The position numbers and the translations under genes are program-made. Under the pieces are notes generated by a model. It ran no database searches and had not been told where the DNA came from. It saw only the letters and a program-made list of their open reading frames with translations. This document shows positions 1 to 14,291 of a stretch of DNA of 14,291 nt, one piece after another. Origin of the DNA: Leidyana gryllorum EB-2025a (Eukaryota; Protista; Apicomplexa). How positions within the stretch are numbered: position 1 is the stretch's first letter; each line of letters starts with the position of its first letter. The DNA lies in the NCBI GenBank assembly GCA_048772705.1, contig JBLWGC010000157.1:1-14291 (forward strand). The letters run 5' to 3'.

Positions 1-7
1 TGATTTG

Positions 8-80
8 CACCGCCCGCGGGGCTCGAACCCGCGACTGCAAGATTAAGAGTCTTGCGCTCTACCGACTGAGCTAGGGCGGC
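8..80 (-). tRNA. tRNA-Lys(CTT)
   Basis: Minus strand GCCGCCCTAGCTCAGTCGGTAGAGCGCAAGA-CTCTTAA-TCTTGCAGTCGCGGGTTCGAGCCCCGCGGGCGGTG; complete 73-nt cloverleaf, no encoded CCA. Confidence 0.95.
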
Positions 81-387
81 AGGGAAGCAAGAACACAAAA
101 CCCGATAGCCTGACATGTGAAGTGACTTTGGTACTCACCGCATCGTTGGCGTGCCAGGCGGAAGTATAAGTTTCACACCATGTCGGAGGCGCGTGACCCC
201 CCCCCATCTTAGAGCCCAGCCTTTCCATTCTCTAGCTCTAACAGACAGGGAACGCTTGGAGTGGCGGGACAGAAACCGAGCTGATCAGTGGAGAGACCCG
301 TGTTGCAGGAGACCTCGGACCCTGTAGTCACAAGCCCAGAACTCTCGCACTGAGTTGCACTACTCCAGCGTCGGATATCATGAAGGA

Positions 388-430
388 AGCTGTTTGGGCT
401 GCAGGTATGATTCTTGCTCGCTTGGAAGAA
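388..430 (+). pseudogene. degenerate 5' fragment of tRNA-Pro
   Basis: AGCTGTTTGGGCTGCAGGTATGATTCTTG...TGGAAGAA aligns to the 5' part of the tRNA-Pro at 3831; T arm missing. Confidence 0.5.
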
Positions 431-441
431 CATTGCAACTG

Positions 442-514
442 GGTCCTGTAGCTCAGTCGGCAAAGCGTGTAGCTGTTCACCACAAAGTCGCAGTTTCGAA
501 GCGTAGCAGTATCG
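442..514 (+). pseudogene. degenerate tRNA, probably Asn(GTT)-derived
   Basis: GGTCCTGTAGCTCAGTCGGCAAAGCGTGTAG-CTGTTCA-CCACAAAGTCGCAGTTTCGAA; A-box and GTT anticodon retained, T and acceptor stems broken. Confidence 0.65.
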
Positions 515-591
515 GGAGCTGCGATATCCGACGCTCTCTTAGAGGTCGCAACTCTGTATTCAACTACCGGCAGGTGCCGCCCTACTGAGTT

Positions 592-664
592 TGGACGACC
601 TGGGTATCGATCCCAGTACCTCTCGCATGCAAAGCGAGCGCTCTACCATCTGAGCTAGCCGCCC
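592..664 (-). tRNA. tRNA-Ala(TGC)
   Basis: GGGCGGCTAGCTCAGATGGTAGAGCGCTCGC-TTTGCAT-GCGAGAGGTACTGGGATCGATACCCAGGTCGTCCA; G3:U70 pair and eukaryotic Ala-type ATCG T-loop. Confidence 0.95.
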
Positions 665-724
665 AGCCGCTCTACATGGAAAACCTATTGCATCCAGTGG
701 CTGACCGACTGCCGATACAACGCC

Positions 725-804
725 TGACAAGAGTGGGATTCGAACCCACGCCCTTTCGGACTGTGGCCTTAACACAGCGCCTTAGACCACTCGGCCTTCT
801 TGCC
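725..804 (-). tRNA. tRNA-Leu(AAG), U8-to-A variant
   Basis: GGCAAGAAGGCCGAGTGGTCTAAGGCGCTGTG-TTAAGGC-CACAG, long variable arm, GGTTCGAATCC; position 8 is A instead of the conserved T. Confidence 0.85.
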
Positions 805-929
805 GGAGTGTTGTTGGCTGGCCGCTCCACGCGTTTCCCGTCCCCGGAATCTCGAGAATGGAAAGACTCTCAGGTTGGAGGCGGGCAACGCAGGTCGGCG
901 TGCCGATTCAAATCCAGCACTTAAGTGTG

Positions 930-1001
930 CTCCGAGACCGGGAATCGAACCCGGGTCTTCCGCGTGACAGGCGGAAATACTAACCACTATACTATCTCGG
1001 A
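930..1001 (-). tRNA. tRNA-Asp(GTC)
   Basis: TCCGAGATAGTATAGTGGTTAGTATTTCCGC-CTGTCAC-GCGGAAGACCCGGGTTCGATTCCCGGTCTCGGAG; perfect stems. Confidence 0.96.
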
Positions 1002-1095
1002 CGCTCTGAACACGCCTGCCTCCGACCCCAAAAGTCCTTCCATTTTGAGATTTCAAGCACAGAAAACGCGTGGAGCGGCAAGCCAACAACATCCC

Positions 1096-1178
1096 GGCAA
1101 GATGGCCGAGTGCTCGAAGGCCCTGTGTGCAGGTCGCAGTCCGAACGGGCCCCGTGGGTTCGAATCCCAGTCTTGTCA
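1096..1178 (+). pseudogene. degenerate tRNA-Leu(CAG)
   Basis: Paralog of 725-804 with D-loop GG lost, U33 changed to G and a variable-arm insertion; anticodon reads CAG. Confidence 0.75.
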
Positions 1179-1238
1179 GCCATGGTATCGGCACTCCGTC
1201 AGCCACTGGATGAATTAGGTCTTCCATGTTGTACGCAT

Positions 1239-1313
1239 GGGCGGCTAGATCAGATGGTGGAGCGCTCGCTGTGCATGCGAGAGAGGTACTGGGATCGACA
1301 GCCAGGTCGTCCA
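1239..1313 (+). pseudogene. degenerate tRNA-Ala(TGC)
   Basis: Paralog of 592-664 with D-stem, U33 and T-stem lesions and an AG insertion. Confidence 0.8.
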
Positions 1314-1402
1314 AACTCCATGCAACTTTGGCTGCAGAGAAACGGCTGGCGCGTGGTCCAAAAATGTGAATGTTGTTATTTCAATCTAGTCGAAGAGCCG
1401 CG

Positions 1403-1475
1403 GCCTACGTGGCGCAATGGATAGCGCGTTGGACTTCTAATCCAAAGGTTGCGAGTTCGAGTCTCGCCGTAGGTA
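1403..1475 (+). tRNA. tRNA-Arg(TCT)
   Basis: GCCTACGTGGCGCAATGGATAGCGCGTTGGA-CTTCTAA-TCCAAAGGTTGCGAGTTCGAGTCTCGCCGTAGGTA; intact. Confidence 0.95.
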
Positions 1476-1539
1476 GCCAAATGCTCAGCACTTTACTTCG
1501 ATGATTTGGCTGACTAGCTGCCTTCGCTGAGACATGTTG

Positions 1540-1611
1540 TCCACTGTAGTCTGAGTGGCTAGGATATGCGGCTCTCACCCGCAAGCTCCGGGCTCAAGTC
1601 CGGCAGTGGAA
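1540..1611 (+). pseudogene. tRNA-Glu(CTC), degenerate
   Basis: Paralog of 4195-4267; anticodon loop CTCTCAC, T54 changed to C, 1-nt deletion in the T stem. Confidence 0.75.
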
Positions 1612-1699
1612 GTCAGTGGTTGAAGCCAGTGAAATACTTGAGCAAAGTGCCCAGCAATCTCCGTCAATAGTGTCTGATTCGTGATCTTCGGCTTGCATT

Positions 1700-1771
1700 G
1701 CCTTCTTAGCTTAGGGGCAGAGCATGTGCTTAGTAAGCGAAAGGTCGGCGGTTCGATTCCGGCAGAAGGCT
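1700..1771 (+). pseudogene. tRNA-Thr(AGT), degenerate
   Basis: GCCTTCTTAGCTTAGGGGCAGAGCA-TGTGC-TTAGTAA-GCGAA; anticodon-stem and T-stem mismatches relative to 2962-3032. Confidence 0.75.
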
Positions 1772-1832
1772 TGACTGCATCGACTGGGCACCTGCAAAGC
1801 TTAAGTCTCTCAAGCTCCACTCATCTTAGCCG

Positions 1833-1904
1833 AGCCTCTTAGCTCAGCCACCAGAGGGTAAGTCTCTTAGCCACAAAGTCGCAGACTGGAACCTGCCAGT
1901 ACCT
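1833..1904 (+). pseudogene. highly degenerate tRNA relic (same family as 442-514)
   Basis: TAGCTCAG...CCACAAAGTCGCAG...AACCTGCCAGTACC shared with 442-514 and 4459-4530. Confidence 0.5.
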
Positions 1905-1969
1905 GAGGCACCCACTAGCTCAACGCAGACTGCCGCCGAGTCTCGTTGTGCTGAGGCTCTCTCTCGAGT

Positions 1970-2040
1970 GCACTTGTGGTCCAAGGGTAGGATGCGAGCT
2001 TCCCATGCTCACAGCCCGGGTTCGAGTCCCGGCAGGTGCA
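1970..2040 (+). tRNA. tRNA-Gly(CCC)
   Basis: GCACTTGTGGTCCAAGGGTAGGATGCGAGC-TTCCCAT-GCTCACAGCCCGGGTTCGAGTCCCGGCAGGTGCA; 71 nt, one anticodon-stem mismatch. Confidence 0.88.
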
Positions 2041-2115
2041 GCCGATCGTACAGGCTTGACCATGGCTGCAACAATGTTTTCAACCGGGGCGAAGAGCAAT
2101 GCACTTTAGACTGCT

Positions 2116-2187
2116 TGTCCGAGCCAGGAATCGAGCCTGGGTTTGCACGGCCACAACGTGCTGTCCTAACCACTAGACGACTCGGAC
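2116..2187 (-). tRNA. tRNA-His(GTG), T54-to-C variant
   Basis: GTCCGAGTCGTCTAGTGGTTAGGACAGCACG-TTGTGGC-CGTGCAAACCCAGGCTCGATTCCTGGCTCGGACA. Confidence 0.88.
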
Positions 2188-2463
2188 AAATCTTTGAGCG
2201 AGGCTGTAGAGGTAGCGAAGCATCTATCAGGATGGGATGGAACAGGAGCGTCAGACGAACTGCGTTGCAAGAAGTCCACTCCTCAACTTCGGGTGGGACG
2301 GAATTTACTCGTGGAATATCTGATGCCACCACCACAGTTAGATACGTTACCATCTAAGCACCCCGGGCCGTGAGAGTACTTCGGGGCGGCACACCGCAGC
2401 CAGAACGACATCGGTGGTCGCAACGGAAGCCATTAACACTTTGGAACTCAGAAGGAAAGTAAT

Positions 2464-2547
2464 GCACAGATGCCCGAGTGGTCTAAGGGGCCAGACTCAA
2501 GTTCTGGTAGGCGCAAGTCTGCATGGGTTCGAATCCCATTCTGTGCA
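2464..2547 (+). tRNA. tRNA-Leu(CAA)
   Basis: GCACAGATGCCCGAGTGGTCTAAGGGGCCAGA-CTCAAGT-TCTGG, long variable arm, GGTTCGAATCC, TCTGTGCA. Confidence 0.95.
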
Positions 2548-2635
2548 ACGGCGATCATCCCAAAAAAAAGCTGGAAAAGGTCACAGTAGATTCGAATCTC
2601 CATTTGTATATTCGGTTGCATGCACCCAAGTATTC

Positions 2636-2705
2636 GGCTGTTGCTCTGCTGGTATAATCCTTCCTCAGAGTGGAAGGAGTCCTGGGTTCGATTCCAGAAC
2701 AGCCC
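2636..2705 (+). pseudogene. degenerate tRNA-Pro
   Basis: GGCTGTT...GGTTCGATTCC...AACAGCCC matches the Pro gene at 3831; D arm and anticodon mutated. Confidence 0.7.
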
Positions 2706-2841
2706 TCTTGGTCGTCGGTTGACCCGACGGGACAAGTTGCCCTCACAACCAACACAGCCACCTCGTTAGCCCACTTCGGCACTCAAGGCCATTAACATCT
2801 CAAGAATCGCATTTCGGCTCCCTCTTCCATGTTGCAGACTG

Positions 2842-2912
2842 AGCAGTGTAGCTCAGTGAAAAGTGTTGGGCTCATAATCCAAAGGTTCGTCGATCGAAAC
2901 GACGCACTGCTA
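2842..2912 (+). tRNA. initiator tRNA-Met(CAT), slightly degenerate
   Basis: A1:U72 pair, GGG-CTCATAA, initiator-type GATCGAAAC T-loop; D-loop GG lost. Confidence 0.75.
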
Positions 2913-2961
2913 AGTTTGCGCAGAAGGGGAACAGTTATAGAATAGATTGCCTCGCGAGCAA

Positions 2962-3032
2962 AGCCTTCTGCCGGAATCGAACCGGCGACCTTTCGCTTAC
3001 TAAGCGAATGCTCTGCCCCAAGCTAAGAAGGC
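2962..3032 (-). tRNA. tRNA-Thr(AGT)
   Basis: GCCTTCTTAGCTTGGGGCAGAGCATTCGC-TTAGTAA-GCGAAAGGTCGCCGGTTCGATTCCGGCAGAAGGCT; A14 missing. Confidence 0.82.
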
Positions 3033-3160
3033 AATGTTAACTGGACATCACGAATGAGTCCCTATTGACGGAAGCTACTGAAGCACATTGTTCCACCACT
3101 CAATACTTCCACTGCTCCACATACCGGCAAATAGGGTGTAACTAAGTTTAGAGCTTCCTT

Positions 3161-3233
3161 GCCGCCCTAGCTCAGTCGGTAGAGCGCAAGACTTTTAATC
3201 TTGCAGTCGCGGGTTCGAGCCCCGCGGGCGGTG
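3161..3233 (+). tRNA. tRNA-Lys(TTT)
   Basis: Identical to 8-80 except at the wobble base (loop CTTTTAA). Confidence 0.95.
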
Positions 3234-3293
3234 CAAATCAATGTCTCTGGGAGTAGGAATGGAACCGTTGCCTACAAGCACACTCTGCTGGAT

Positions 3294-3366
3294 TTCCACT
3301 GCCGGGACTTGAACCCGGATCGTGCGGGTGAAAGCCGCATATCCTAGCCACTTAGACTACAGTGGA
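3294..3366 (-). tRNA. tRNA-Glu(TTC)
   Basis: TCCACTGTAGTCTAAGTGGCTAGGATATGCGG-CTTTCAC-CCGCACGATCCGGGTTCAAGTCCCGGCAGTGGAA; intact. Confidence 0.95.
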
Positions 3367-3478
3367 CAAGTTCCCCAGGTGAGGTCAACAAGACGTGGTC
3401 CGTCGGGTCAACCTACAACAAAGGGGTTGCAGTAGAAAGTGGAGGGTCCCTCTACTAAGCTCTGCAACATTGTAAGGC

Positions 3479-3551
3479 GTCTTGTGAGCTCAGTCGGCAG
3501 AGCGTGTGGCTTTTGATGACAAGCTCGCAGGTCCGGAACCTAGCAAAACCG
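3479..3551 (+). pseudogene. degenerate tRNA relic (Asn-like family)
   Basis: AGCTCAGTCGGCAGAGCGTGTGGCT...TCGCAGGTCCGGAACCTAGCA resembles 442-514; stems broken. Confidence 0.55.
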
Positions 3552-3669
3552 GCTTCAGAGGCACCCTAGACATTGACTGCGGTGCTCTCCCAATGGCACT
3601 TGTGGTTCGCGACCCTTCAAAGATGACAACGATGGGTTTGAATCCGGCCACGTGCAGCCGTACGTACTT

Positions 3670-3742
3670 TGGACGACCTGGGCATCGATCCCAGTACCTC
3701 TCGCATGCTAAGCGAGCGCTCTACCATTTGAGCTAGTCGCCC
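3670..3742 (-). tRNA. tRNA-Ala(AGC)
   Basis: GGGCGACTAGCTCAAATGGTAGAGCGCTCGC-TTAGCAT-GCGAGAGGTACTGGGATCGATGCCCAGGTCGTCCA. Confidence 0.95.
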
Positions 3743-3830
3743 GTTATGCGGACCCCATCGCATTTGTTGGTTCTCAACATAGGATGACCACTTTTTAAAC
3801 TGTCTTCAGCGGGTTACACGAATGACAGGC

Positions 3831-3902
3831 GGCTGTTTGGTCTAGTGGTATGATTCTTCCGTCGGGTGGAAGAAGTCCTGGGTTCCATTCCCAAAACAGC
3901 CC
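3831..3902 (+). tRNA. tRNA-Pro(CGG), variant
   Basis: GGCTGTTTGGTCTAGTGGTATGATTCTTCC-GTCGGGT-GGAAGAAGTCCTGGGTTCCATTCCCAAAACAGCCC; non-canonical bases at positions 32 and 57. Confidence 0.8.
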
Positions 3903-3978
3903 GCTCTGTTGTATCTTGACCCAACCTGCCCGGCAGCATGGTTCTGGGTTCGGGTGATTCCTCGGAGAAAGTCGGAGG

Positions 3979-4051
3979 GGGAGTGTAGCGCAGTCGGTAG
4001 CGCGTAGGTCTCATAATCCTGAAGTCGAGAGTTCGATCCTCTCCACTCCCA
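3979..4051 (+). tRNA. elongator tRNA-Met(CAT)
   Basis: GGGAGTGTAGCGCAGTCGGTAGCGCGTAGGT-CTCATAA-TCCTGAAGTCGAGAGTTCGATCCTCTCCACTCCCA. Confidence 0.93.
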
Positions 4052-4091
4052 CGGTCGGAATCGAAACCGCGACAAACTCATCATGCTACCA

Positions 4092-4133
4092 TTTTGCAGT
4101 CGGGAATCGCACACAGGTTATCTCGATGGCAGC
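4092..4133 (-). pseudogene. 3' half of a degenerate tRNA-Gly(GCC)
   Basis: Matches the 3' half of the fuller relic at 14077-14147; the 5' half is replaced by other sequence here. Confidence 0.5.
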
Positions 4134-4194
4134 CGACATACCATGTTTTCCAAGACGGTACGGCTCTCGGCCGAAGCCCCAACTCAACCACTCG

Positions 4195-4267
4195 TCCACT
4201 GTAGTCTAAGTGGCTAGGATATGCGGCTTTCACCCGCACGATCCGGGTTCAAGTCCCGGGAGTGGAA
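4195..4267 (+). tRNA. tRNA-Glu(TTC)
   Basis: Same as 3294-3366 except for one acceptor-stem mismatch. Confidence 0.9.
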
Positions 4268-4343
4268 GTCATTGAACTACTCTAGCAAAGTGCTCCACTA
4301 ATCTCCGTCAATAGCGATTGTTTCGTCATCTCCGGCTTCCATT

Positions 4344-4415
4344 GCCTTCTTAGTTTAGGGGCGGAGCGTTCGCTTCGTAAGCGAGAAGTCGCCGGTTCGA
4401 TTCCGGCTGAAGGCT
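4344..4415 (+). tRNA. tRNA-Thr(CGT), variant
   Basis: GCCTTCTTAGTTTAGGGGCGGAGCGTTCGC-TTCGTAA-GCGAGAAGTCGCCGGTTCGATTCCGGCTGAAGGCT; a few stem changes. Confidence 0.8.
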
Positions 4416-4458
4416 CGACTGCATCGACTGGGCACCGGCAAGCTGCTCGCAAACTCCA

Positions 4459-4530
4459 ATAATCGTAGCTCAGCCATCAGAGGTAAGTCTCTCAGCCACG
4501 AAGTCGCAGGTTTAGAACCTGCCAGTACCT
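4459..4530 (+). pseudogene. highly degenerate tRNA relic
   Basis: Paralog of 1833-1904. Confidence 0.5.
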
Positions 4531-4545
4531 GAGGCACCCACAGGG

Positions 4546-4617
4546 GGCTGTTTGGTCTAGTTATATAATTCTTTCTTCGGCTGGAAGAAGTCCTGGGTTC
4601 AATGCCACGTCTCTCCA
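4546..4617 (+). pseudogene. degenerate tRNA-Pro(CGG)
   Basis: GGCTGTTTGGTCTAG...TTCGG...GGAAGAAGTCCTGGGTTCAAT; 3' acceptor strand lost. Confidence 0.7.
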
Positions 4618-4718
4618 AGGTCGGCTACTATACGCGACTCCCACTCGTACAATCCCGAATGAAGTCCAGACCAGCTGAGACAAAATCTGAGTTGCACCAG
4701 TTGTGAGGGCTGGAACTG

Positions 4719-4790
4719 CTCCGAGACCGGGAATCGAACCCGGGTCTTCCGCGTGACAGGCGGAAATACTGACCACTATACTATCTCGGA
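4719..4790 (-). tRNA. tRNA-Asp(GTC)
   Basis: One D-loop difference from 930-1001; the upstream flank is also homologous. Confidence 0.96.
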
Positions 4791-4911
4791 CGCTAGTAAA
4801 CACGCCGGCCTCCAACCCCAGAACTCCTCGCATTTTGAAATTGGAGAAGTTTTTTAATTGGCCACCCGATAGTGAACTTTGGGTGGTCAGCATAACACAC
4901 TATATATATTA

Positions 4912-5031
4912 GCTGTCTACCATACTACATCGAAAGAGCAGGATCCCATCCGAACTCCGCCGCGAAGCGATGTAAGGCCAGGTCAGTACTGGGCTGGGGG
5001 ACCGCCCGGGAACACCAAGGAGTTGACAGCA
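4912..5031 (+). rRNA. 5S rRNA
   Basis: About 120 nt; GCTGTC/GACAGC terminal helix, CCATAC, GATCCCATCCGAACTCCG, AGTACT-GG..GGGGACC..CCGGGAA motifs; followed by TTTT. Confidence 0.93.
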
Positions 5032-5035: not shown

Positions 5036-5311
5036 GTTCAAGATTAAATTGGCACCCGATAGTTAATGAGATGTATGATGAGACCCACCAATATAACAGT
5101 AGAGTGACACACAGTGTTGTCATACACAGTCACTGATATACTTTCACATTCACATTGAGTTGGGTGGTTAGTGGGTTAAGAGTAAATACCATGGGGATAA
5201 CTGAAAGTGAGGGGGAGGGTTGGTTGACGACGACCAGTTGGGGAAAGAAAAAATAAGGCGCTGTCCGCGCAAAGTCAAGTTTTGGCACCCGATAGTGATT
5301 AATATAAGATA

Positions 5312-5675
5312 CATTGAACATCACAGTAAGCCTCAGCAGATCGTAAGACAAAGCTTACTCTCATGCTTACAGCACCTGGATGCGTCCCAATCGTCTTTTG
5401 GGGATGCAAAGCTCCCGATCAATATTAATGTTTATCCACTTAAAGCTTTCGTCGCCGACTGTGGAATGACCTCAATCGACCAATTATACAGTGATGCCTC
5501 GATCAAGAGTACTAGGCGTTGATGTTCAGCTAGGATTCTGACTTAGAGGCGTTCAGTCATTATCCTACAAGCGTAGCTTTGCAGCACTGGCCTTTCGACC
5601 AACTGCGTTACCAGAGGCTTGAGCCAACGGTTCCTCTCGTACTAAGTTGGCTTACTGTCACAATGCCGCCTAATA

Positions 5676-5729
<54 letters not shown>

Positions 5730-5771
5730 ATTAGCGGGTGAACAATCCGACATTTTGAGACTTCTGCGTCT

Positions 5772-5809
<38 letters not shown>

Positions 5810-5832
5810 AACGTCGCTATGAACGCTTGGCT

Positions 5833-5867
<35 letters not shown>

Positions 5868-6230
5868 TCACCTCTAGCCAGAACCTTTCTGGACTTAAAG
5901 GATCGATAGGCCATGCTTTCGCAGTTCGTATTCGCACTGGAAATCAGAATCAAGCTGACTTTTCCCCTTTCAGTCTACGAGAGATTTCTGTTCTCTCTGA
6001 GTCAACCTTAGGGCATCTGCGTTGCAGTTTAGCAGATGTGCCGCCCCAGCCAAACTCCCCATCTGAATATGTCCTCTGATACGATCGGTAAGAGAACCTT
6101 AAATCTGGAACACGTAAGAAAACGTGATTCGTTGTGACAGAGTAAGTAGAGCGACAGTGGAGGTCGTGGTATTTCACTGTCGCCAAAGCTCCCACGTATG
6201 CTACACCCCCCAAGTCACTCCACAAAGTCA

Positions 6231-6268
<38 letters not shown>

Positions 6269-6275
6269 TATTTTG

Positions 6276-6310
<35 letters not shown>

Positions 6311-6365
6311 GGCGGATGGGGACAGTAGGAATCTCGTTGATCCATTCATGCGCGTCACTAATTAA

Positions 6366-6427
<62 letters not shown>

Positions 6428-6444
6428 GGCGAATTTCATCGCAA

Positions 6445-6477
<33 letters not shown>

Positions 6478-7647
6478 CGTAAAAAGCGTTGCCGCTTGTC
6501 GCAATGCTTTGTTTTAATTAAACAGTCAGATTCCTCTTGTCCGTACCAGTTCTGAGTTAGCCGGTTAATGCCAACAGGATAGCCGAAGCTCCTAGCGTAG
6601 GCCACCGCTCGTTGCAACTCCCAGAGCGAGTCACCCCACTCCAGAAAAAGCGAGAACGATGAACTGTCACTAGGCCCTGAAAGCTCGGCCCTCAGAGCCA
6701 ATCCTTTTTCCAAAGGTACAGATCTAATTTGCCGACTTCCCTCATCCGCCTTATTCTATCGACCAGAGGCTGCGAACCTAGGAGACCTGATGCGGTTTAG
6801 GGTACGGCTAGAAAGTGGAGTAAATATCCCTTGGGGTTTCAAAGGCCAATAGAAGCGCACCGGATTTCCAACAGGTGTAAGAAACTATGCCAACTTTTCA
6901 TCCTTTTCTCCAGACAAGCCGATTCAAAGGAGTGGTGTTGTCAAAGAGCAAAGATAACGCTCCCCAGGGCTTCTCCTGGCAACCCAAGTTCAGTTGTGTT
7001 ACCACAACCCCACCAACTAGTAAAGGAATTTGGGCCTTTTTCCCTTTCAGGTCAAGAGGCGAAGCCTCACTCTGAAGGAGTAAGCTTTTCCTTTAGGGCC
7101 GACTAACCCGAGGACAATTGCTGTTCTCCCGGAACCCTTATCCACTTCGGTCATCAAAGTTCTCATTTGATTAATTGCTACTACCACCAAGATCTGCACT
7201 AGAGGCTGCTCCAGCTAGTTTCACAACTAAGCCTTCTCAGCAACCCCCACGCCCTCCTACACGTCAATGCTTATTTCATTGACGGTCTGGTATCGGCCGC
7301 CCGCTTGAGCGCTATCCATTTTCAGGGCTGGTCCATTCGGCAGGTGAGTTATTACACACTCCTTAGCGGATTTCAACTTCCATGACCACCGCCCTGCTGT
7401 TTCAATGAACCAACACCTTTTATGGTGTCTGATCAGCGAGTGTTGAGCGCCTTAACCAAACGTTAGGAGCATCCCTCATCGCCAGTTCTGCTTACCAAAA
7501 CTGGCCCACTAAGAAGTATCATTCATCTACCGAGCTAACTGAATTAGCAAGGTAGCAAACCCATTTAAAGTTTGAGAATAGGTCGAGGGCGGGATGCCCC
7601 CGAGGCCTCTAATCATTCGCTTTACCGGATCTAACTGATCATTAACT

Positions 7648-7701
<54 letters not shown>

Positions 7702-8168
7702 AGTCTTTCGCCCCTATGCCCAAGTTTGACGAACGATTTGCACGTCAGTATCGCTACGAGCTTCCACCAGGGTTTCCCCTGGCTTCACCCAACTCAGGTA
7801 TAGGTCACCATCTTTCGGGTCTAAACGAAAATGCTCAGGCTCGAACTTCAAGAGTCGGCTGCTGTTGCATTGTAATTCACAGCTTTTGCTTTCACTACGC
7901 GTCTGGGTTTGACACCCTTACACTCGCACTTTCGTTTAACTCCTTGGTCCGTGTTTCAAGACGGGTCGTCTGTACATGCCACTCTCGACAACTTACAATG
8001 GCGTACCACACTTCTCGATGTTAAGAGCTTTGTCATAACCGAAGCGATAACAAGTCGTAACATACGGAAGTGATGTCGAGTAATGTAATGAGAGAAATCT
8101 CTCAAACATTGGGTCACGGACAGCCGCTTCCCCCTCAGCGATTTCAGGTATTTTAACTCTCCTTTCGA

Positions 8169-8201
<33 letters not shown>

Positions 8202-8538
8202 TGCTATCGATCTCTCACCGTTATCTAGCCGTGGATGGAGGTTACCACCCATTTTGCGCTCTACTCCCAAAGAGCGTGACTCATTAGATTACAGCTGTAC
8301 TTGAGAATGGCTGGAATAAGAACAGGGCTGTCACCTTCTCTGGCGTGCCTTTCCAGGCATCTTCTTCCCAGTTTCTCAATAGCTGCAACCTCGATGCACA
8401 ACTCCGTCAGAAACGGATTAACATCGCGGGCTTTTCCCACTTCGTTCGCCACTACTACGGGAATCCCAGTTGGTTTCTTTTCCTCCGCTTAATTATATGC
8501 TTAAATTCAGCGGGTAGCCTTGCTTGAGCTCGGATCAT
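5312..8538 (-). rRNA. 28S (LSU) rRNA, apparently full length; ends approximate
   Basis: 5' ACCCGCTGAATTTAAGCATAT; universal LSU motifs including GGGATAACTGGCTTGTGGCAGCCAAGCGTTCATAGCGACG, GTGAGCTGGGTTTAGACCGTCGTGAGACAGG and the sarcin-ricin loop AGTACGAGAGGAAC; 3' ACGATCTGCTGAG. Confidence 0.97.
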
Positions 8539-8668
8539 GATTTGAGAAGCCTACTGTAATTACCTCAACATTTCACTGTATGAGTTCTTACAGGTAGCAT
8601 CATTTAGCCAGTGACGGAAAGACACTGTATGTCATCCATTCAATCGAAATTGATTGGAGAAATCTATA
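8539..8668 (-). other. ITS2 (~130 nt)
   Basis: Spacer between 5.8S and 28S. Confidence 0.8.
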
Positions 8669-8823
8669 CGATACCGAGCCAAACATACTTCAGGCCGAGG
8701 CCAGAAGTACCTTTGCGTTCAGAGATCTGGTGAATCACGAAATTTCGCAAGTCATACTGCTTATCGCGGTTTGCTGCGTCCTTCCTCGGTGTGAGAGTCG
8801 AGTCATCCATCGCTGAGAGTTTT
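8669..8823 (-). rRNA. 5.8S rRNA
   Basis: AACTCTCAGCGATGGATGACTCG...GAAGGACGCAGCAAACCGCGATAAG...TGAACGCA; position between SSU and LSU. Confidence 0.92.
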
Positions 8824-8892
8824 TAATTCTCATTAATAATGATTTAGTCATGTTAATTCATTTAGTGCTTAGGTTGGTTGTTGTTTAACAGG
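8824..8892 (-). other. ITS1 (~70 nt, AT-rich)
   Basis: Spacer between the 18S end (GGATCATT) and 5.8S. Confidence 0.8.
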
Positions 8893-9044
8893 AATGATCC
8901 ATCCGCAGGTTCACCTACGGATACCGTGTTACGACTTCTTCATCCTCTAGATGATAAGGCTCACAACATTTCCTCACGAAGAGCGATGTAGAACAAAGCA
9001 GCTACGTAAGTCCATGTAATTTGCCGGATCATCCAATCGGTTGA

Positions 9045-9079
<35 letters not shown>

Positions 9080-9431
9080 ATCAGCACAAGGTGATGACTT
9101 GTCCTTACTAGGAATTCCTCGTTCATGACCCATAATTGCAAAGGTCAATCCCTATCACGACGGAGTTTCACAAGATTTCCCCCTTCGGACGAAGTAGGGT
9201 AGAGCTCGCTGACTCCGTCATTGTAGCGCACGTGCAGCCCAGGCCATCTAAGGGCATCACAGACCTGTTATAGGCTCGAACTTCCTTGTGATAGTCTCAC
9301 AAAGTCCCTCTAAGAAGCCAATCGCTTACAGAAGTAAACGAAGGCTAGTTAGTAGGTCGAGGTCTCGTCCGTTATCGGAATTAACCAGACAAGTCACCTC
9401 ACCGACTAAGAACGGCCATGCACCACCACCC
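8893..9431 (-). rRNA. 18S rRNA, 3' ~540 nt only; truncated by the element
   Basis: Runs from GGGTGGTGGTGCATGGCCGTTCTTAG through GTACACACCGCCCGTC to GTAGGTGAACCTGCGGATGGATCATT; homology stops abruptly at 9431. Confidence 0.96.
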
Positions 9432-9746
9432 TAGTGATACTTGCGGAACGGTTCAAAAGGTGGGTTACGGACGAGTTATTTCCGCGAGTACGTTTTTTGA
9501 GTATCGCAAAAGGGCGGTTACGTCCGGGCCGAAAGTATCTGTCCTTATGCGACAGTAGGCCGTAAAGGGGGGATATGTTGTGTTACATGTAAAGATTATG
9601 TGCTGTGAGCTCGTCTCAATGGTCGATCTGCTCCGGTAGACGGCTGATTAACGCGTGTTGTGCTATATCTTCATGCGCTATGGTACTATGGTAAGTTATT
9701 GGTTAATGTGGTATGGAAAAAGTAAGTTACCAGTCTGTCTATCTGA
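9432..9746 (+). repeat. left terminal inverted repeat (315 bp)
   Basis: Reverse complement of 11955-12270; by eye they differ by one substitution and one homopolymer indel (T6 vs A7). Confidence 0.97.
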
Positions 9747-9853
9747 CTGTCAATGGTCAAGCACGTTAACCAGCACGAAACCAGAACGAAACCAGACTGT
9801 CTCCTCTAATACTAATCGACGACCATCAACCTTCAACCTTGCGTATAGAAACA

Positions 9854-11962
9854 ATGTCCATGACGAATTCTACCCAAGTTAACACTACTGTACCCACCAG
9901 CCTCAATACTACCACTGTACCCACCTCGCTCAGTACCACCCGCCGCCTCACCCAAGCCACCCTGTCGGTGAACGCCAAAGCGCGTCGTTCCGACTCATCG
10001 ATGAGCCAAAGTTGCTCTTCCGACTCCGCCCTCGGCGCCCCTGCAACCCCGACCGCTTCTGTCACAGCCCCCCACCACCAGCTCCTCTGCGCCCTTCCCA
10101 CCGCGAGCTTCCGGCCACAAAGACGGATGCAGGGAGTCTTTGCTGACTGGTTCGCTAAGCAGCCCATCGACCTGTCACTCATTCCAGTGCCACAACTGAT
10201 GAGTGCGGTCGATGACTTCTACAGGCGGCTGTACGATTCCCTACCCGTTGACCCCGCTCGCCCCCCATACTACAGTCTGCAGAGCTGGCTGCAGTTCCAA
10301 GGTTCTCTTCCTCCCGCCCCAAGCGCCCCCCACTACGACCCGGACTGGCTCGCTTTTCTGGCTGCTGCATCGAACCACTTTGAATGTTCGGTGGCCAATC
10401 TCACCGATCGAGATGCAGCGGCCGGATTATGCATGACCGGTCCGTACGAGCCTGTCCCTCCTCCTCCTTGTCTCCGCTGCCGTGGCCCGACCGCTCCTTC
10501 TTCTCGTCCCAGCACCGCCAACACCGCCGCTCGCCCAGGGAAGCTGCTGGCCCACCTTCAGCGGGCAATGGGCGGGCACAACCTATTTGCTGTGTTGGCT
10601 GCGTTTAGTCAGGGACCGCGTCGGGCGTCACTGGTCCAATGGGGGAAGATCTCTGCGCCGTCTGACACATTCGTTGGCATTCGGCCAGACTACCGCGCCC
10701 CCCTGGAGACCGCCCTTTACCTGTCCATCCTCTACCGTCTCGAAGCGATTCGGACTCTGGACTTCTCAAGCACAACCCTCCCACCCTGCAGCCCACTGGA
10801 GTTTACTTATTGCGAAGACGGCGGCATTGCCCCCGAGGTTTTCGCTAGTGTAGTCGAGTCTGATGAAGAACACTGGAAGCAGATTCTGGTGTGCTTGAAG
10901 ACTACGGGGTACACGGGAATAGCGAAGATCAATGCCGCCGTCAGCTCGATACTCCGGAGGCTGCACGATGAGCCTCAGATCGTTGGGCTTTTCAAAGGGT
11001 TCGGGGGAGGGAAGGCTGATGCCCAGGGAGTTAGAGTTCGAGTAGCTCCTCTTCAAACCCGCCCCTTCGTGAAGGTGGAAGAAGTTCGTCAGCCCGCGAA
11101 GCTACTGGCCCGGTTGTGCCGTACAGTGAAGGACTCCGCCCTCGTCGCGGCCTGTCTGCTGCTGTACCTCACCGGTTTGCGTGGCGAGGAACTTCGACCG
11201 ATCACATGGGCCGCGTTTGCTGAGGGGGGGGTAACTATTTCTTTGAGTAAGACCGGCGGAACCAGGACCGTTCAGCTACCTGCGGGTAGCGAAACGCTCT
11301 TCCGGCGACTCCTACTCGGCTCTGCTAAGGTTCAACCCGACCCTTCTCACCGCATGCTTCCTGACCAATTTGGCTACAAGCGGCGGGCTCCCCCTTCCCA
11401 ATCGACCCAGAGTCCCACAGTTCTTTTTGCCAGCTCGAAGAAGCGTGCAAGGCTGCTGCTGACGGACCTCTTTGGCGACAAAGGCGACCGTAAGATCTCG
11501 ATGGGACTCCATTGTTGGAGACGAACCTTCATCAGATCGGTGACTGCCTGTGTCGCCAAAGCGTCCACACTGGTGGCTCACAAGCGCCTTGCAACCACGC
11601 AACGCTTCTACGCCGGCAGCGCTGGCCATCTCGAGGCAGCTGAAGAGTTGTGGACCAACTTGGTTGAAGCATGGCGGTCGATGGGGCTGACCAAGGGAGA
11701 AGGCGGGCTGAGCCATAGAGCCTTGGCGGACCTGGATTGCTCCGAGCCGCCAGCAACCTGGGTGAAGTTTAGAGAGGATTGTGGAGGGGGATTGGACACA
11801 GCGGGAGGAGATTCGGACTCCGACGAGGATGACGAAGACGACCGCGACTCAGACCTCGCATCCGACTCCGAGTCGGAATCTCCCATCGTTACACCACCAC
11901 GCTCGAGGAAGAGATGTTTGGGGGCAGAGCCGACAGAAGACAAAAGGCGGAGGATCAGATAG
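9854..11962 (+). CDS. tyrosine recombinase (phage-integrase fold), ~702 aa from the first ATG
   Basis: Box I LYLTGLRGEEL (R codon 11180), SKTGGTRTV (K 11249), GLHCWRRTF (HxxR 11510-11521), LVAHKRLATTQRFY (H 11579, Y 11609). ORF is open from 9839; first ATG at 9854 in ACAATG context. Acidic tail followed by basic RSRKR and KRRRIR. Confidence 0.92.
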   Translation: MSMTNSTQVNTTVPTSLNTTTVPTSLSTTRRLTQATLSVNAKARRSDSSMSQSCSSDSALGAPATPTASVTAPHHQLLCALPTASFRPQRRMQGVFADWFAKQPIDLSLIPVPQLMSAVDDFYRRLYDSLPVDPARPPYYSLQSWLQFQGSLPPAPSAPHYDPDWLAFLAAASNHFECSVANLTDRDAAAGLCMTGPYEPVPPPPCLRCRGPTAPSSRPSTANTAARPGKLLAHLQRAMGGHNLFAVLAAFSQGPRRASLVQWGKISAPSDTFVGIRPDYRAPLETALYLSILYRLEAIRTLDFSSTTLPPCSPLEFTYCEDGGIAPEVFASVVESDEEHWKQILVCLKTTGYTGIAKINAAVSSILRRLHDEPQIVGLFKGFGGGKADAQGVRVRVAPLQTRPFVKVEEVRQPAKLLARLCRTVKDSALVAACLLLYLTGLRGEELRPITWAAFAEGGVTISLSKTGGTRTVQLPAGSETLFRRLLLGSAKVQPDPSHRMLPDQFGYKRRAPPSQSTQSPTVLFASSKKRARLLLTDLFGDKGDRKISMGLHCWRRTFIRSVTACVAKASTLVAHKRLATTQRFYAGSAGHLEAAEELWTNLVEAWRSMGLTKGEGGLSHRALADLDCSEPPATWVKFREDCGGGLDTAGGDSDSDEDDEDDRDSDLASDSESESPIVTPPRSRKRCLGAEPTEDKRRRIR

Positions 11963-12270
11963 ACAGACTGGTAACTTACTTTTTCCATACCACATTAACG
12001 AATAACTTACCATAGTACCATAGCGCATGAAGATATAGCACAACACGCGTTAATCAGCCGTCTACCGGAGCAGATCGACCATTGAGACGAGCTCACAGCA
12101 CATAATCTTTACATGTAACACAACATATCCCCCCTTTACGGCCTACTGTCGCATAAGGACAGATACTTTCGGCCCGGACGTAACCGCCCTTTTGCGATAC
12201 TCAAAAAAACGTACTCGCGGAAATAACTCGTCCGTAACCCACCTTTTGAACCGTTCCGCAAGTATCACTA
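11955..12270 (-). repeat. right terminal inverted repeat (316 bp)
   Basis: Reverse complement of 9432-9746; contains the ORF stop codon TAG (11960-11962). Confidence 0.97.
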
Positions 12271-12447
12271 TACTTACCGGGACGGAATTTACTCGTGGAA
12301 TATCTGATGCCACCACTACAGTCAGATACGTTACCATCTAAGCACCCCGGCCCGTGAGAGTACTTCGGGGCGGCACACCGCAGTTAGAACGACATCGGCG
12401 GTCGCAACGGAAGCCATTAACACTTTGGAACTCTGAAGGAAAGTAAT

Positions 12448-12531
12448 GCACAGATGCCCGAGTGGTCTAAGGGGCCAGACTCAAGTTCTGGTAGGCGCAA
12501 GTCTGCATGGGTTCGAATCCCATTCTGTGCA
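12448..12531 (+). tRNA. tRNA-Leu(CAA)
   Basis: Identical to 2464-2547. Confidence 0.95.
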
Positions 12532-12618
12532 ACGGCGATTATCCCAAAAAAAGCTGGAAAAGGCCACAGTAGATTCGAATCTGCATTTGTATATCTGGTT
12601 GCATGCACCCAAGTATTC

Positions 12619-12687
12619 GGCTGTTGCTCTGCTGGTATAATCCTTCCTCAGAGTGGAAGGAGTCCTGGGTTCGATTCCAGAACACCC
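12619..12687 (+). pseudogene. degenerate tRNA-Pro
   Basis: Copy of 2636-2705. Confidence 0.7.
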
Positions 12688-12828
12688 TATTGGTCGTCGT
12701 TTGACTTGACCGGACATGTTGCCCTCAGAACCAACACAGCCACCTCGTTAGCCCGCTTCGGTAGGGCAGTCAGGGCAACTAACATCTCGAGGATCACATT
12801 TCGGCTACCTCTTCCATGTTGCAGACTG

Positions 12829-12900
12829 AGCAGTGTAGCTCAGTGGAAGAGTGTTAGGCTTATAACGCAAAGGTCCGTCGATCGAAACGACGCACTGCTA
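12829..12900 (+). pseudogene. initiator tRNA-Met-derived gene with anticodon mutated to TAT
   Basis: A1:U72 and GATCGAAAC retained; anticodon arm TTAGG-CTTATAA-CGCAA is mispaired. Confidence 0.75.
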
Positions 12901-12948
12901 AGTGTGCGCAGAAGGGAACAGTTGCAGGATAGATTGGCTCGTGAGCCA

Positions 12949-13019
12949 AGCCTTCTGCCCGAATCGAACCGGCGACCTTTCACTTACTAAGCGAATGCTC
13001 TGCCCCAAGCTAAGAAGGC
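12949..13019 (-). pseudogene. tRNA-Thr(AGT), degenerate
   Basis: Copy of 2962-3032 with extra anticodon-stem and T-stem mismatches. Confidence 0.72.
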
Positions 13020-13147
13020 AATGTTAAGTGGACATCACGAATGAGTCCCTATTGACGGAAGTTACTGAAGCACATTGTTCCACCACTCAATACTTCCACG
13101 GATCCACCCACCGGCAAATAGGGTGTAACTAAGTTTAGAGCTTCCTT

Positions 13148-13220
13148 GCCGCCCTAGCTCAGTCGGTAGAGCGCAAGACTTTTAATCTTGCAGTCGCGGG
13201 TTCGAGCCCCGCGGGCGGTG
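13148..13220 (+). tRNA. tRNA-Lys(TTT)
   Basis: Identical to 3161-3233. Confidence 0.95.
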
Positions 13221-13277
13221 CAAATCAATGTCTCTGGGAGTAGTGGAACCGTTGCCTACAAGCACACTCTGCTGGAT

Positions 13278-13350
13278 TTCCACTGCCGGGACATGAACCC
13301 GGATCGTGCGGGTGAGAGTCGCATATCCTAGCCACTTAGACTACAGTGGA
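13278..13350 (-). tRNA. tRNA-Glu(CTC), variant or possible pseudogene
   Basis: Positional copy of Glu(TTC) 3294-3366 with anticodon CTC, an A31:C39 mismatch and A58 changed to T. Confidence 0.72.
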
Positions 13351-13462
13351 CAACTTCCCCAGTTGAGGTCAACAAGACGTGGTCCGTCGGGTCAACCTAC
13401 AACAAAGGGGTTGCAGTAGAAAGTGGAGGGTCCCTCTACTAAGCTCTGCAACATTGTAAGGC

Positions 13463-13535
13463 GTCTTGTGAGCTCAGTCGGCAGAGCGTGTGGCTTTTGA
13501 TGACAAGCTCGCAGGTCCGAAACCTAGCAAAACCG
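13463..13535 (+). pseudogene. degenerate tRNA relic
   Basis: Copy of 3479-3551. Confidence 0.55.
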
Positions 13536-13653
13536 GCTTCAAAGGCACCCTAGACATTGACTGCGGTGCTCTCCCAATGGCACTTGTGGTTCGCGACCCT
13601 TCAAAGATGACAACGATGGGTTTGAATCCGGCCACCTGCAGCCGTACGTACTT

Positions 13654-13726
13654 TGGACGACCTGGGCATCGATCCCAGTACCTCTCGCATGCTAAGCGAG
13701 CGCTCTACCATTTGAGCTAGTCGCCC
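13654..13726 (-). tRNA. tRNA-Ala(AGC)
   Basis: Identical to 3670-3742. Confidence 0.95.
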
Positions 13727-13814
13727 GTTCTGCGGACCCCATCGCATTTGTTGGTTCTCAACATAGGATGACCACTTTTTAAACTGTCTTCAGCGGGTTA
13801 CACGAATGACAGGC

Positions 13815-13886
13815 GGCTGTTTGGTCTAGTGGTATGATTCTTCCGTCGGGTGGAAGAAGTCCTGGGTTCCATTCCCAAAACAGCCC
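13815..13886 (+). tRNA. tRNA-Pro(CGG), variant
   Basis: Identical to 3831-3902. Confidence 0.8.
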
Positions 13887-13962
13887 GCTTTGTTGTATCT
13901 TGACCCGACCTGCCTGGCAGCATGGTTCTGGGTTCGGGTGATTCCTCGGAGAAACTCGGAGG

Positions 13963-14035
13963 GGGAGTGTAGCGCAGTCGGTAGCGCGTAGGTCTCATAA
14001 TCCTGAAGTCGAGAGTTCGATCCTCTCCACTCCCA
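13963..14035 (+). tRNA. elongator tRNA-Met(CAT)
   Basis: Identical to 3979-4051. Confidence 0.93.
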
Positions 14036-14076
14036 CGGTCGGAATCGAAACCGCCGACAAACTCATCATGCTATCA

Positions 14077-14147
14077 TTTTTCAGTCGGGAATCGCACACA
14101 GGTTATCTCGATGGCAGCGAGCGACTCTTCCACTAGACCACAGATGC
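14077..14147 (-). pseudogene. degenerate tRNA-Gly(GCC)
   Basis: GCATCTGTGGTCTAGTGGAAGAGTCGCTCG-CTGCCAT-CGAGATAACCTGTGTGCGATTCCCGA; Gly-type 5' half and GCC anticodon, T arm and acceptor decayed. Confidence 0.65.
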
Positions 14148-14213
14148 AGAACACGATCTTGTAAATCTTGTACGTGGTGACAGCCATTCCTCTTAAGCCT
14201 ATCGATGCAACAA

Positions 14214-14285
14214 AGCCTTCTGCCGGAATCGAACCGGCGACTTCTCGCTTACGAAGCGAACGCTCTGCCCCTAAGCTAAGAAGAA
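14214..14285 (-). tRNA. tRNA-Thr(CGT); first two bases changed from GC to TT
   Basis: TTCTTCTTAGCTTAGGGGCAGAGCGTTCGC-TTCGTAA-GCGAGAAGTCGCCGGTTCGATTCCGGCAGAAGGCT. Confidence 0.78.
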
Positions 14286-14291
14286 AACTTC

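Follow-up and report, generated by a model that had tools for sequence, protein, structure and literature searches.

We propose that the eight bases TACTTACC, which stand at positions 12271-12278 between the right end of an element encoding a tyrosine-recombinase-type protein and a block of tRNA genes, are mostly target DNA and represent the scar of an imprecise joining at a site resembling a motif of the host rDNA spacers, with the probability of this reading being put at about 0.45. The evidence base is one element copy with its two junctions in the window, i.e., the whole stretch of 14,291 nucleotides that was analysed, and the empty sites used for comparison are proxies (a paralog of 95.8% identity and the SSU gene of a 96%-identical relative).

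The element and its recombinase

The element is composed as follows.

9432-12270, plus strand: the whole element (2,839 bp) with a TIR at each end and no target duplication
9432-9746, plus strand: left TIR, the same as the right TIR in 314 of 316 columns
11955-12270, minus strand: right TIR, with its final 7 nt, ATCACTA, being the left half of the motif copy at about 5286-5298/5299
9839-11962, plus strand: ORF of 707 aa with an integrase-family tyrosine recombinase domain, the stop codon lying within the right TIR

The ORF is the sole long one in the element. That it encodes a tyrosine recombinase, as had been implied by an earlier reading made from the sequence only, is confirmed by the matches to PHROG 1 (E 1.6e-10) and PHROG 216 (E 2.7e-8), by the top Atlas match (PF00589, 0.98) and by the residues R448, K471, H558, R561, H581 and Y591, which a motif reading finds in the order R-K-H-R-H-Y that we take to be the catalytic pattern. 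The Pfam match to PF00589 (Phage_integrase) has 19 bits and thus lies below the cut-off of 27.1, and the Pfam scan of the ORF at E up to 1 gave this family alone; the searches of NCBIfam and PDB gave no match. The single-sequence structure model of the recombinase is poor, with a pLDDT of 37.5. We consider that this small eukaryotic element with a tyrosine-recombinase-type protein is likely to be mobile.

No second copy of the element was found by the protein searches, in the public runs or by the search of metagenome and viral contigs with the TIR-end pattern (0 matches); in the 24 public sequencing runs a fraction of 0.06-0.08 of the window words is present, and the 4 of these runs that were aligned to the empty-site block gave coverage of tRNA genes alone and none of the site. 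The protein searches gave no close relative of the recombinase, with one of them giving 4 weak matches, the nearest being P0002 (E 7e-5, 29%). P0002 is a 278-aa singleton that is 29% identical across the recombinase domain, has the GLHxWRR stretch in common and gave no match in PHROG or NCBIfam; it may be distantly related and belong to one eukaryotic recombinase group with the protein of the element. It is also noted that the TIR (9432-9746) contains sub-terminal repeats, namely CAAAAGG..GGTTACG at TIR positions 23/32 and 76/85, GTAAGTTA at TIR positions 260 and 291, and, at TIR position 102, the word of the terminal arm in inverted form, which are candidates for arm-type binding sites.

Genomic setting

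The window is eukaryotic, and signatures of its SSU may be reminiscent of Amoebozoa. It begins with a tRNA cluster (1-4790), followed by the 5S rRNA gene on the plus strand (4912-5031) and, on the minus strand at 5309-9431, by the LSU, the 5.8S and the 3' third of the SSU rRNA. The parts that bear on the two junctions are as follows.

8900-9431, minus strand: 3' third of the SSU rRNA gene, with the cut following position 1238 in the numbering of a relative's SSU
12279-14118, plus strand: second copy of the tRNA block, 95.8% identical to 2295-4133, with 64 substitutions and 7 indels
2283-2301, plus strand: empty paralogous site, of which 2283-2295 is two edits off the 13-nt motif and one edit off the 10-nt core

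For comparison, 62 related rDNA loci were taken from metagenome contigs (2 of them annotated), with units of about 6.3 kb and the same 5S linkage. Past CACCACCACCC, the related SSU continues with A in 66 of 66 matches (62 loci, some overlapping) and with ATAG in 63 of the 66. Since the SSU runs on past CACCACCACCC in the relatives, the SSU of the window stops at 9431. The related rDNA loci contain neither the element nor the tRNA block, and tRNAs are present in 1 of the 30 loci scanned. To judge from these alignments, the two flanks of the element stem from different loci, implying a deletion or fusion junction rather than a simple insertion, and for this reason the paralog can stand in for the empty site as a proxy only.

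Several other observations concern the same region. Because the rDNA of the window is without the promoter/ETS and SSU positions 1-1238, it is a fragment embedded in tRNA clusters. These clusters (1-4800 and 12279-14291) are dense, with 30 genes called on both strands, and contain shuffled duplications, which are 79-98% identical, along with a number of degenerate copies resembling tRNAs; the tRNA block and its second copy diverge at 4133/14118. In the tRNA-Met(CAT) paralog (12829-12900 versus 2842-2912) the anticodon loop is altered and ARAGORN calls tRNA-Tyr(ATA), so that it is probably a decaying copy. A second rearrangement join is seen at 4843-4856, where the homology to the tRNA-Asp paralog stops at 4842 and a weak rDNA-spacer homology begins from about 4834-4857, 10-20 nt beyond a motif copy. 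The sole locus with tRNA genes adjoining rDNA among the 30 scanned has 3 such calls (L030, 227-1078).

The right junction

Two features are distinguished at the right junction.

12271-12278, plus strand: the 8-nt junction segment TACTTACC, with a single occurrence in the window
12251-12285, no strand assigned: imperfect inverted repeat across the junction, with the inner arm in the TIR and the outer arm made of the 8-mer and the host GGGACGG

The match between the TIRs ends at 12270/9432 and the homology with the paralog begins at 12279/2295, so that the 8-mer and the junction quoted in the sequence-only reading were correctly located. That reading had also stated that the 8-mer belongs neither to the TIR nor to the empty site, which holds for the ungapped comparison only, as the empty paralog has ACTT at 2286-2289, with the break coming five bases later.

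An anchored arm score was calculated by comparing the flank with the reverse complement of the TIR arm at spacers of 4-8. The score is 8 at the right junction and 1 at the left, and a score of 8 is reached at 9 of 18,822 background positions; the fold of the 61-nt right junction has z = -2.78, reached in 1 of 200 shuffles; the folds of the spacers are not significant (z 0.24, -1.35, -0.29 and -0.01). The inverted match that had been noticed around a 6-bp spacer thus stands as a match, but the fixed 6-nt spacer does not, as AAGTAT and ATACTT around a 4-nt CACT are also possible; no single spacer length among 4-8 fits both joins.

The high score would be expected if the copy of the block that now adjoins the element had already read TACTTACCGGGACGG and the recombinase had taken this stretch for an outer core-site arm in a clean crossover that used TCACTA as the overlap. 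The empty paralog itself scores 5 (538 of 18,822), and its upstream side resembles the TIR end under lenient gap costs (top 0.6%; 4-9% under stricter ones). We regard such a clean crossover as quite unlikely, because it fits the right end only, with the left junction having no arm and the native SSU site scoring at most 4, and because two indels would have to fall within 10 nt, whereas the alignment of the paralogs shows 7 across 1,846 columns.

The distal half of the outer arm (GGGACGG) is native host flank present in the empty paralog, and target DNA can account for 11 of the 15 bases of this arm. With ACTT inherited, the observed arm score is reached by 76 of 256 fillers, although a 4-nt word would be shared by chance by 14% of 8-mers. 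Against an origin mostly from the target, the outer arm of 15 nt lies closer to the arm of the element itself (3 edits) than to the paralog (6 edits). In addition, a cluster of 6 edits in 12 columns is found in 6 of 1,834 windows of the paralog alignment, which is so rare that the right join is poorly explained by drift on its own.

It could be argued that 6-8 nt from a previous insertion site replaced the target overlap here, as coupling sequences do in Tn916 and CTnDOT, with the target's own overlap remaining at a junction now lost. The length is suitable (6-8 nt, depending on the counting of T12271 and C12278), there is no target duplication, the left end is flush, and, with the partner junction absent, the reading works without a deletion; PMC5812530 and PMC2817482 document overlaps of a non-homologous kind for Tn916 and IntDOT. 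A random 8-mer ahead of the native flank would, however, reach the score of 8 in only 244 of 20,000 draws, target DNA may make up 4 of the 8 nt, the two flanks stem from separate loci, and no donor site was found, with the 8-mer having no other occurrence in the window and being present in 2 of the 62 related loci. The transfer of a coupling sequence would also leave unexplained the motif-like site that ends at the break and the left flank that starts with the motif's right half, and we consider it unlikely.

The 8-mer might, instead, be a constant and asymmetric part of the element's right end, that is, a built-in core arm. Asymmetric ends are known in other recombinase elements, TACTT mirrors the AAGTA of the TIR, and ACTTACC, which makes up 7 of the 8 bases, recurs within the TIR at 12005 (6% chance). 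We think that a constant right end is improbable, since half of the outer arm is host flank common to the empty paralog and the hexamers at the two ends are inverted, implying inversion and no excision.

The hexamer TCACTA is inverted between 9432-9437 and 12265-12270, with no directly repeated spacers, and a loxP/FRT-type enzyme acting on inverted spacers would invert rather than excise. Given this inversion of the spacers and the lack of an arm at the left end, a loxP-like excision core is unlikely. The proposal that the junction is a recombinase core site is weakened accordingly by the inverted hexamers, the left score of 1 and the 11 outer-arm bases that may be target.

An artefact of the assembly, in which two loci were joined through a repeated element or the junction consensus is wrong, would be consistent with the flanks from different loci and with TIRs that differ by one homopolymer base. 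It is very improbable in our view: the 4,123 rRNA positions contain no window-specific indel, which makes a sequencing error at the 8-mer unlikely, the ORF of 707 codons is intact, and a mis-join within the element would keep both junction sequences real.

Some further candidates were tried and rejected. A hairpin footprint (P-nucleotide or protelomerase) is rejected because the exact mirror of the end is limited to TA, and a TA duplication because the paralog's break has no TA and the left join is one T short. On the minus strand, with the donor and acceptor consensus that we assume, the right end (12270-12278) reads as a splice donor and the left (9431-9435) as an acceptor TAG|G; on the plus strand, the 9-mer at 12270-12278 is what we take to be the U1 5' end. 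The Rfam searches gave 0 matches at the site, and U1 gave 0 at E up to 10 for both copies; in addition, once ACTT is explained only 2 bases are left (1 in 16), and the flanks are not exons. The splice-site and U1 resemblance is probably due to chance.

The rDNA-spacer motif at both ends

The copies of the motif and the left junction are located as follows.

5286-5298, minus strand: host rDNA-spacer motif TCACTATCGGGTG, copy just beyond the LSU end
5053-5065, minus strand: variant copy of the motif, adjoining the 5S 3' end
4863-4875, minus strand: motif TCACTATCGGGTG, copy upstream of the 5S
100-108, minus strand: variant of the motif core, upstream of tRNA-Lys
9427-9437, minus strand: left junction TCACTA|GGGTG, with the element end flush on the SSU rRNA, two edits from the host motif

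The core ACTATCGGG occurs 63 times in 333,341 nt, where 2.5 occurrences are expected, and is present in 17 of the 62 related rDNA loci; in the spacers of four of them (L024, L014, L044 and L031) up to 11 copies per locus flank the 5S and the LSU end. The position of the motif copies next to the LSU end and the 5S suggests that a terminator or insulator factor may bind there. A literature search with the motif core gave, among the matches listed, unrelated titles.

The terminal ATCACTA of the element belongs to the set of 62 7-mers that overlap the four canonical motif copies (0.4% by k-mer count). When up to 2 edits of the 13-mer are allowed, the window outside the spacer is matched at two places only, 2283-2295 in the empty paralog and 9427-9437 at the left junction. 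With the 10-nt core CTATCGGGTG at up to 1 edit, 6 sites are found in 21,416 nt, namely the four canonical copies and the two empty targets, i.e., the paralog site and the native SSU site as read from locus L014. The joint chance over 18 sub-frames of the motif, which was noticed after the fact, is 1.2e-5 to 1.2e-2, being below 1e-3 in 15 of the 18, and a motif-free test is weaker, with a shared 6-mer in 720 of 20,000 random pairs. As the element end is the motif's left half and both empty targets are motif-like, the two ends share the target logic. The asymmetry of the ends that had been pointed out before is therefore true of the outer arm, which the left end lacks (score 1), but not of the targets, since both empty ones resemble the host motif. 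Judged from sequence, the element probably targets the host rDNA-spacer motif.

Proposed imprecise joining at a motif-like target

Based on the imprecise-joining reading, the recombinase would engage motif-like sites via the homology carried at each TIR end, and the reaction would proceed one end at a time, or else two insertions would have recombined later. The DNA that had separated the SSU gene from the tRNA block would have been lost in the course of this. Outward from the element, both flanks read as the right half of the motif, which fits the end-wise reactions or the recombination between two insertions. Compared with a crossover within the CTA common to both, the left join would be one T short. 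At the right join the ACTT of the target would be kept and might have annealed with a short copy of the element's AAGTA made by fold-back, and 2 nt would have been gained and 4 nt lost there via repair or paralog drift. It is noted that the AC gained at the right join is accounted for by no model. The recombinase would presumably act at either join.

The pseudo-palindrome would then be largely target sequence together with the product of the joining, with no fixed loxP-like core. Since the canonical motif copies, when taken as outer arms, score at most 4, motif targeting alone does not give the palindrome, which would need an extra step of the snap-back type or the choice of an arm-like site. 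Snap-back synthesis, as described for SD-MMEJ in the part of PMC5728401 cited here, creates new microhomology and leaves longer inverted repeats. A wider form of the model, in which both identical ends carry the motif's left half, join end-wise at motif-like sites, rebuild the host site, and cut and fuse rDNA and tRNA arrays, with the 8 nt as the footprint, is doubtful, though it deserves mention.

Comparison with known systems

Tec3 of Euplotes crassus reportedly has long TIRs and a content of only the tyrosine recombinase. According to the passages cited of PMC3212892, Tec1-3 encode a tyrosine recombinase, and according to those of PMC3464196, Sardine and Thon are ciliate elements bearing a tyrosine recombinase, with ciliate elements that have TIRs and the recombinase also encoding a DDE transposase. 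Like Tec3, Tec1/Tec2, Sardine and Thon, as far as these passages describe them, the present element is a eukaryotic DNA element with long TIRs, a tyrosine recombinase gene and TA-bounded ends. Unlike the Tec elements, Sardine and Thon, it has no DDE transposase ORF, is 2.8 kb long, has TIRs that are not palindromic and shows no TA at the paralog's break, and TAG is a stop here, in a host that need not be a ciliate. The protein searches gave no sequence relative of the element, and the likeness to Tec3 is one of architecture.

In the passages cited of PMC10104507, the termini of Starships are proposed to carry target-homologous sequence and some Starships target 5S rDNA. The element resembles these fungal elements with their Captain recombinase, so far as described there, in its seemingly target-homologous ends and its probable targeting of an rDNA motif. 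Starships are large, with footprint-free excision, direct repeats and DUF3435; by contrast, the target-like hexamer here stands in opposite orientations at the left and right end, neither join is exact and the Pfam match is only Phage_integrase, with no match to a DUF3435 Captain in the Pfam scan of the ORF at E up to 1. Cryptons, for which the cited passages of PMC3212892 give no TIRs and direct repeats of 4-6 bp, are likewise eukaryotic DNA transposons with only the tyrosine recombinase, but the present element has TIRs of 316 bp and no direct repeat, and only the self-complementary TA is shared by its ends. DIRS, Ngaro and VIPER are rejected, as there is one long ORF and no reverse transcriptase match. 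The element thus resembles Tec3 in its build and a Starship in its probable targeting, and the features tested place it outside the Cryptons, the Starships and the DIRS elements.

With Tn916 and CTnDOT the element shares an integrase-family tyrosine recombinase, the lack of a target duplication and a possible foreign 6-8-mer at one end, but those elements are bacterial, need Xis and host factors, and have short imperfect ends and variable coupling sequences, whereas here there is a single copy. With loxP, FRT and dif the right junction shares inverted arms around a centre of 4-8 nt, but its arms agree in only some 12 of 15 positions and contain a bulge, are half host flank, are present at one end only and go with inverted spacers. 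No recombinase-only TIR element mimicking an rDNA-spacer motif was found in the literature searched, which consisted largely of the main texts of non-subscription papers.

Significance

The target choice and movement of eukaryotic tyrosine-recombinase DNA transposons are poorly known, and circular intermediates for Cryptons and Starships are, in the passages of PMC10104507 cited, proposed and not shown. The 8 nt alone, from one copy, carry modest weight. The element offers a compact test system, with 2.8 kb, a single gene, an intact ORF and a predicted target of 10-13 nt. If its ends mimic the host rDNA-spacer motif, site-specific recombination would be linked to the rearrangement of rDNA and tRNA arrays.
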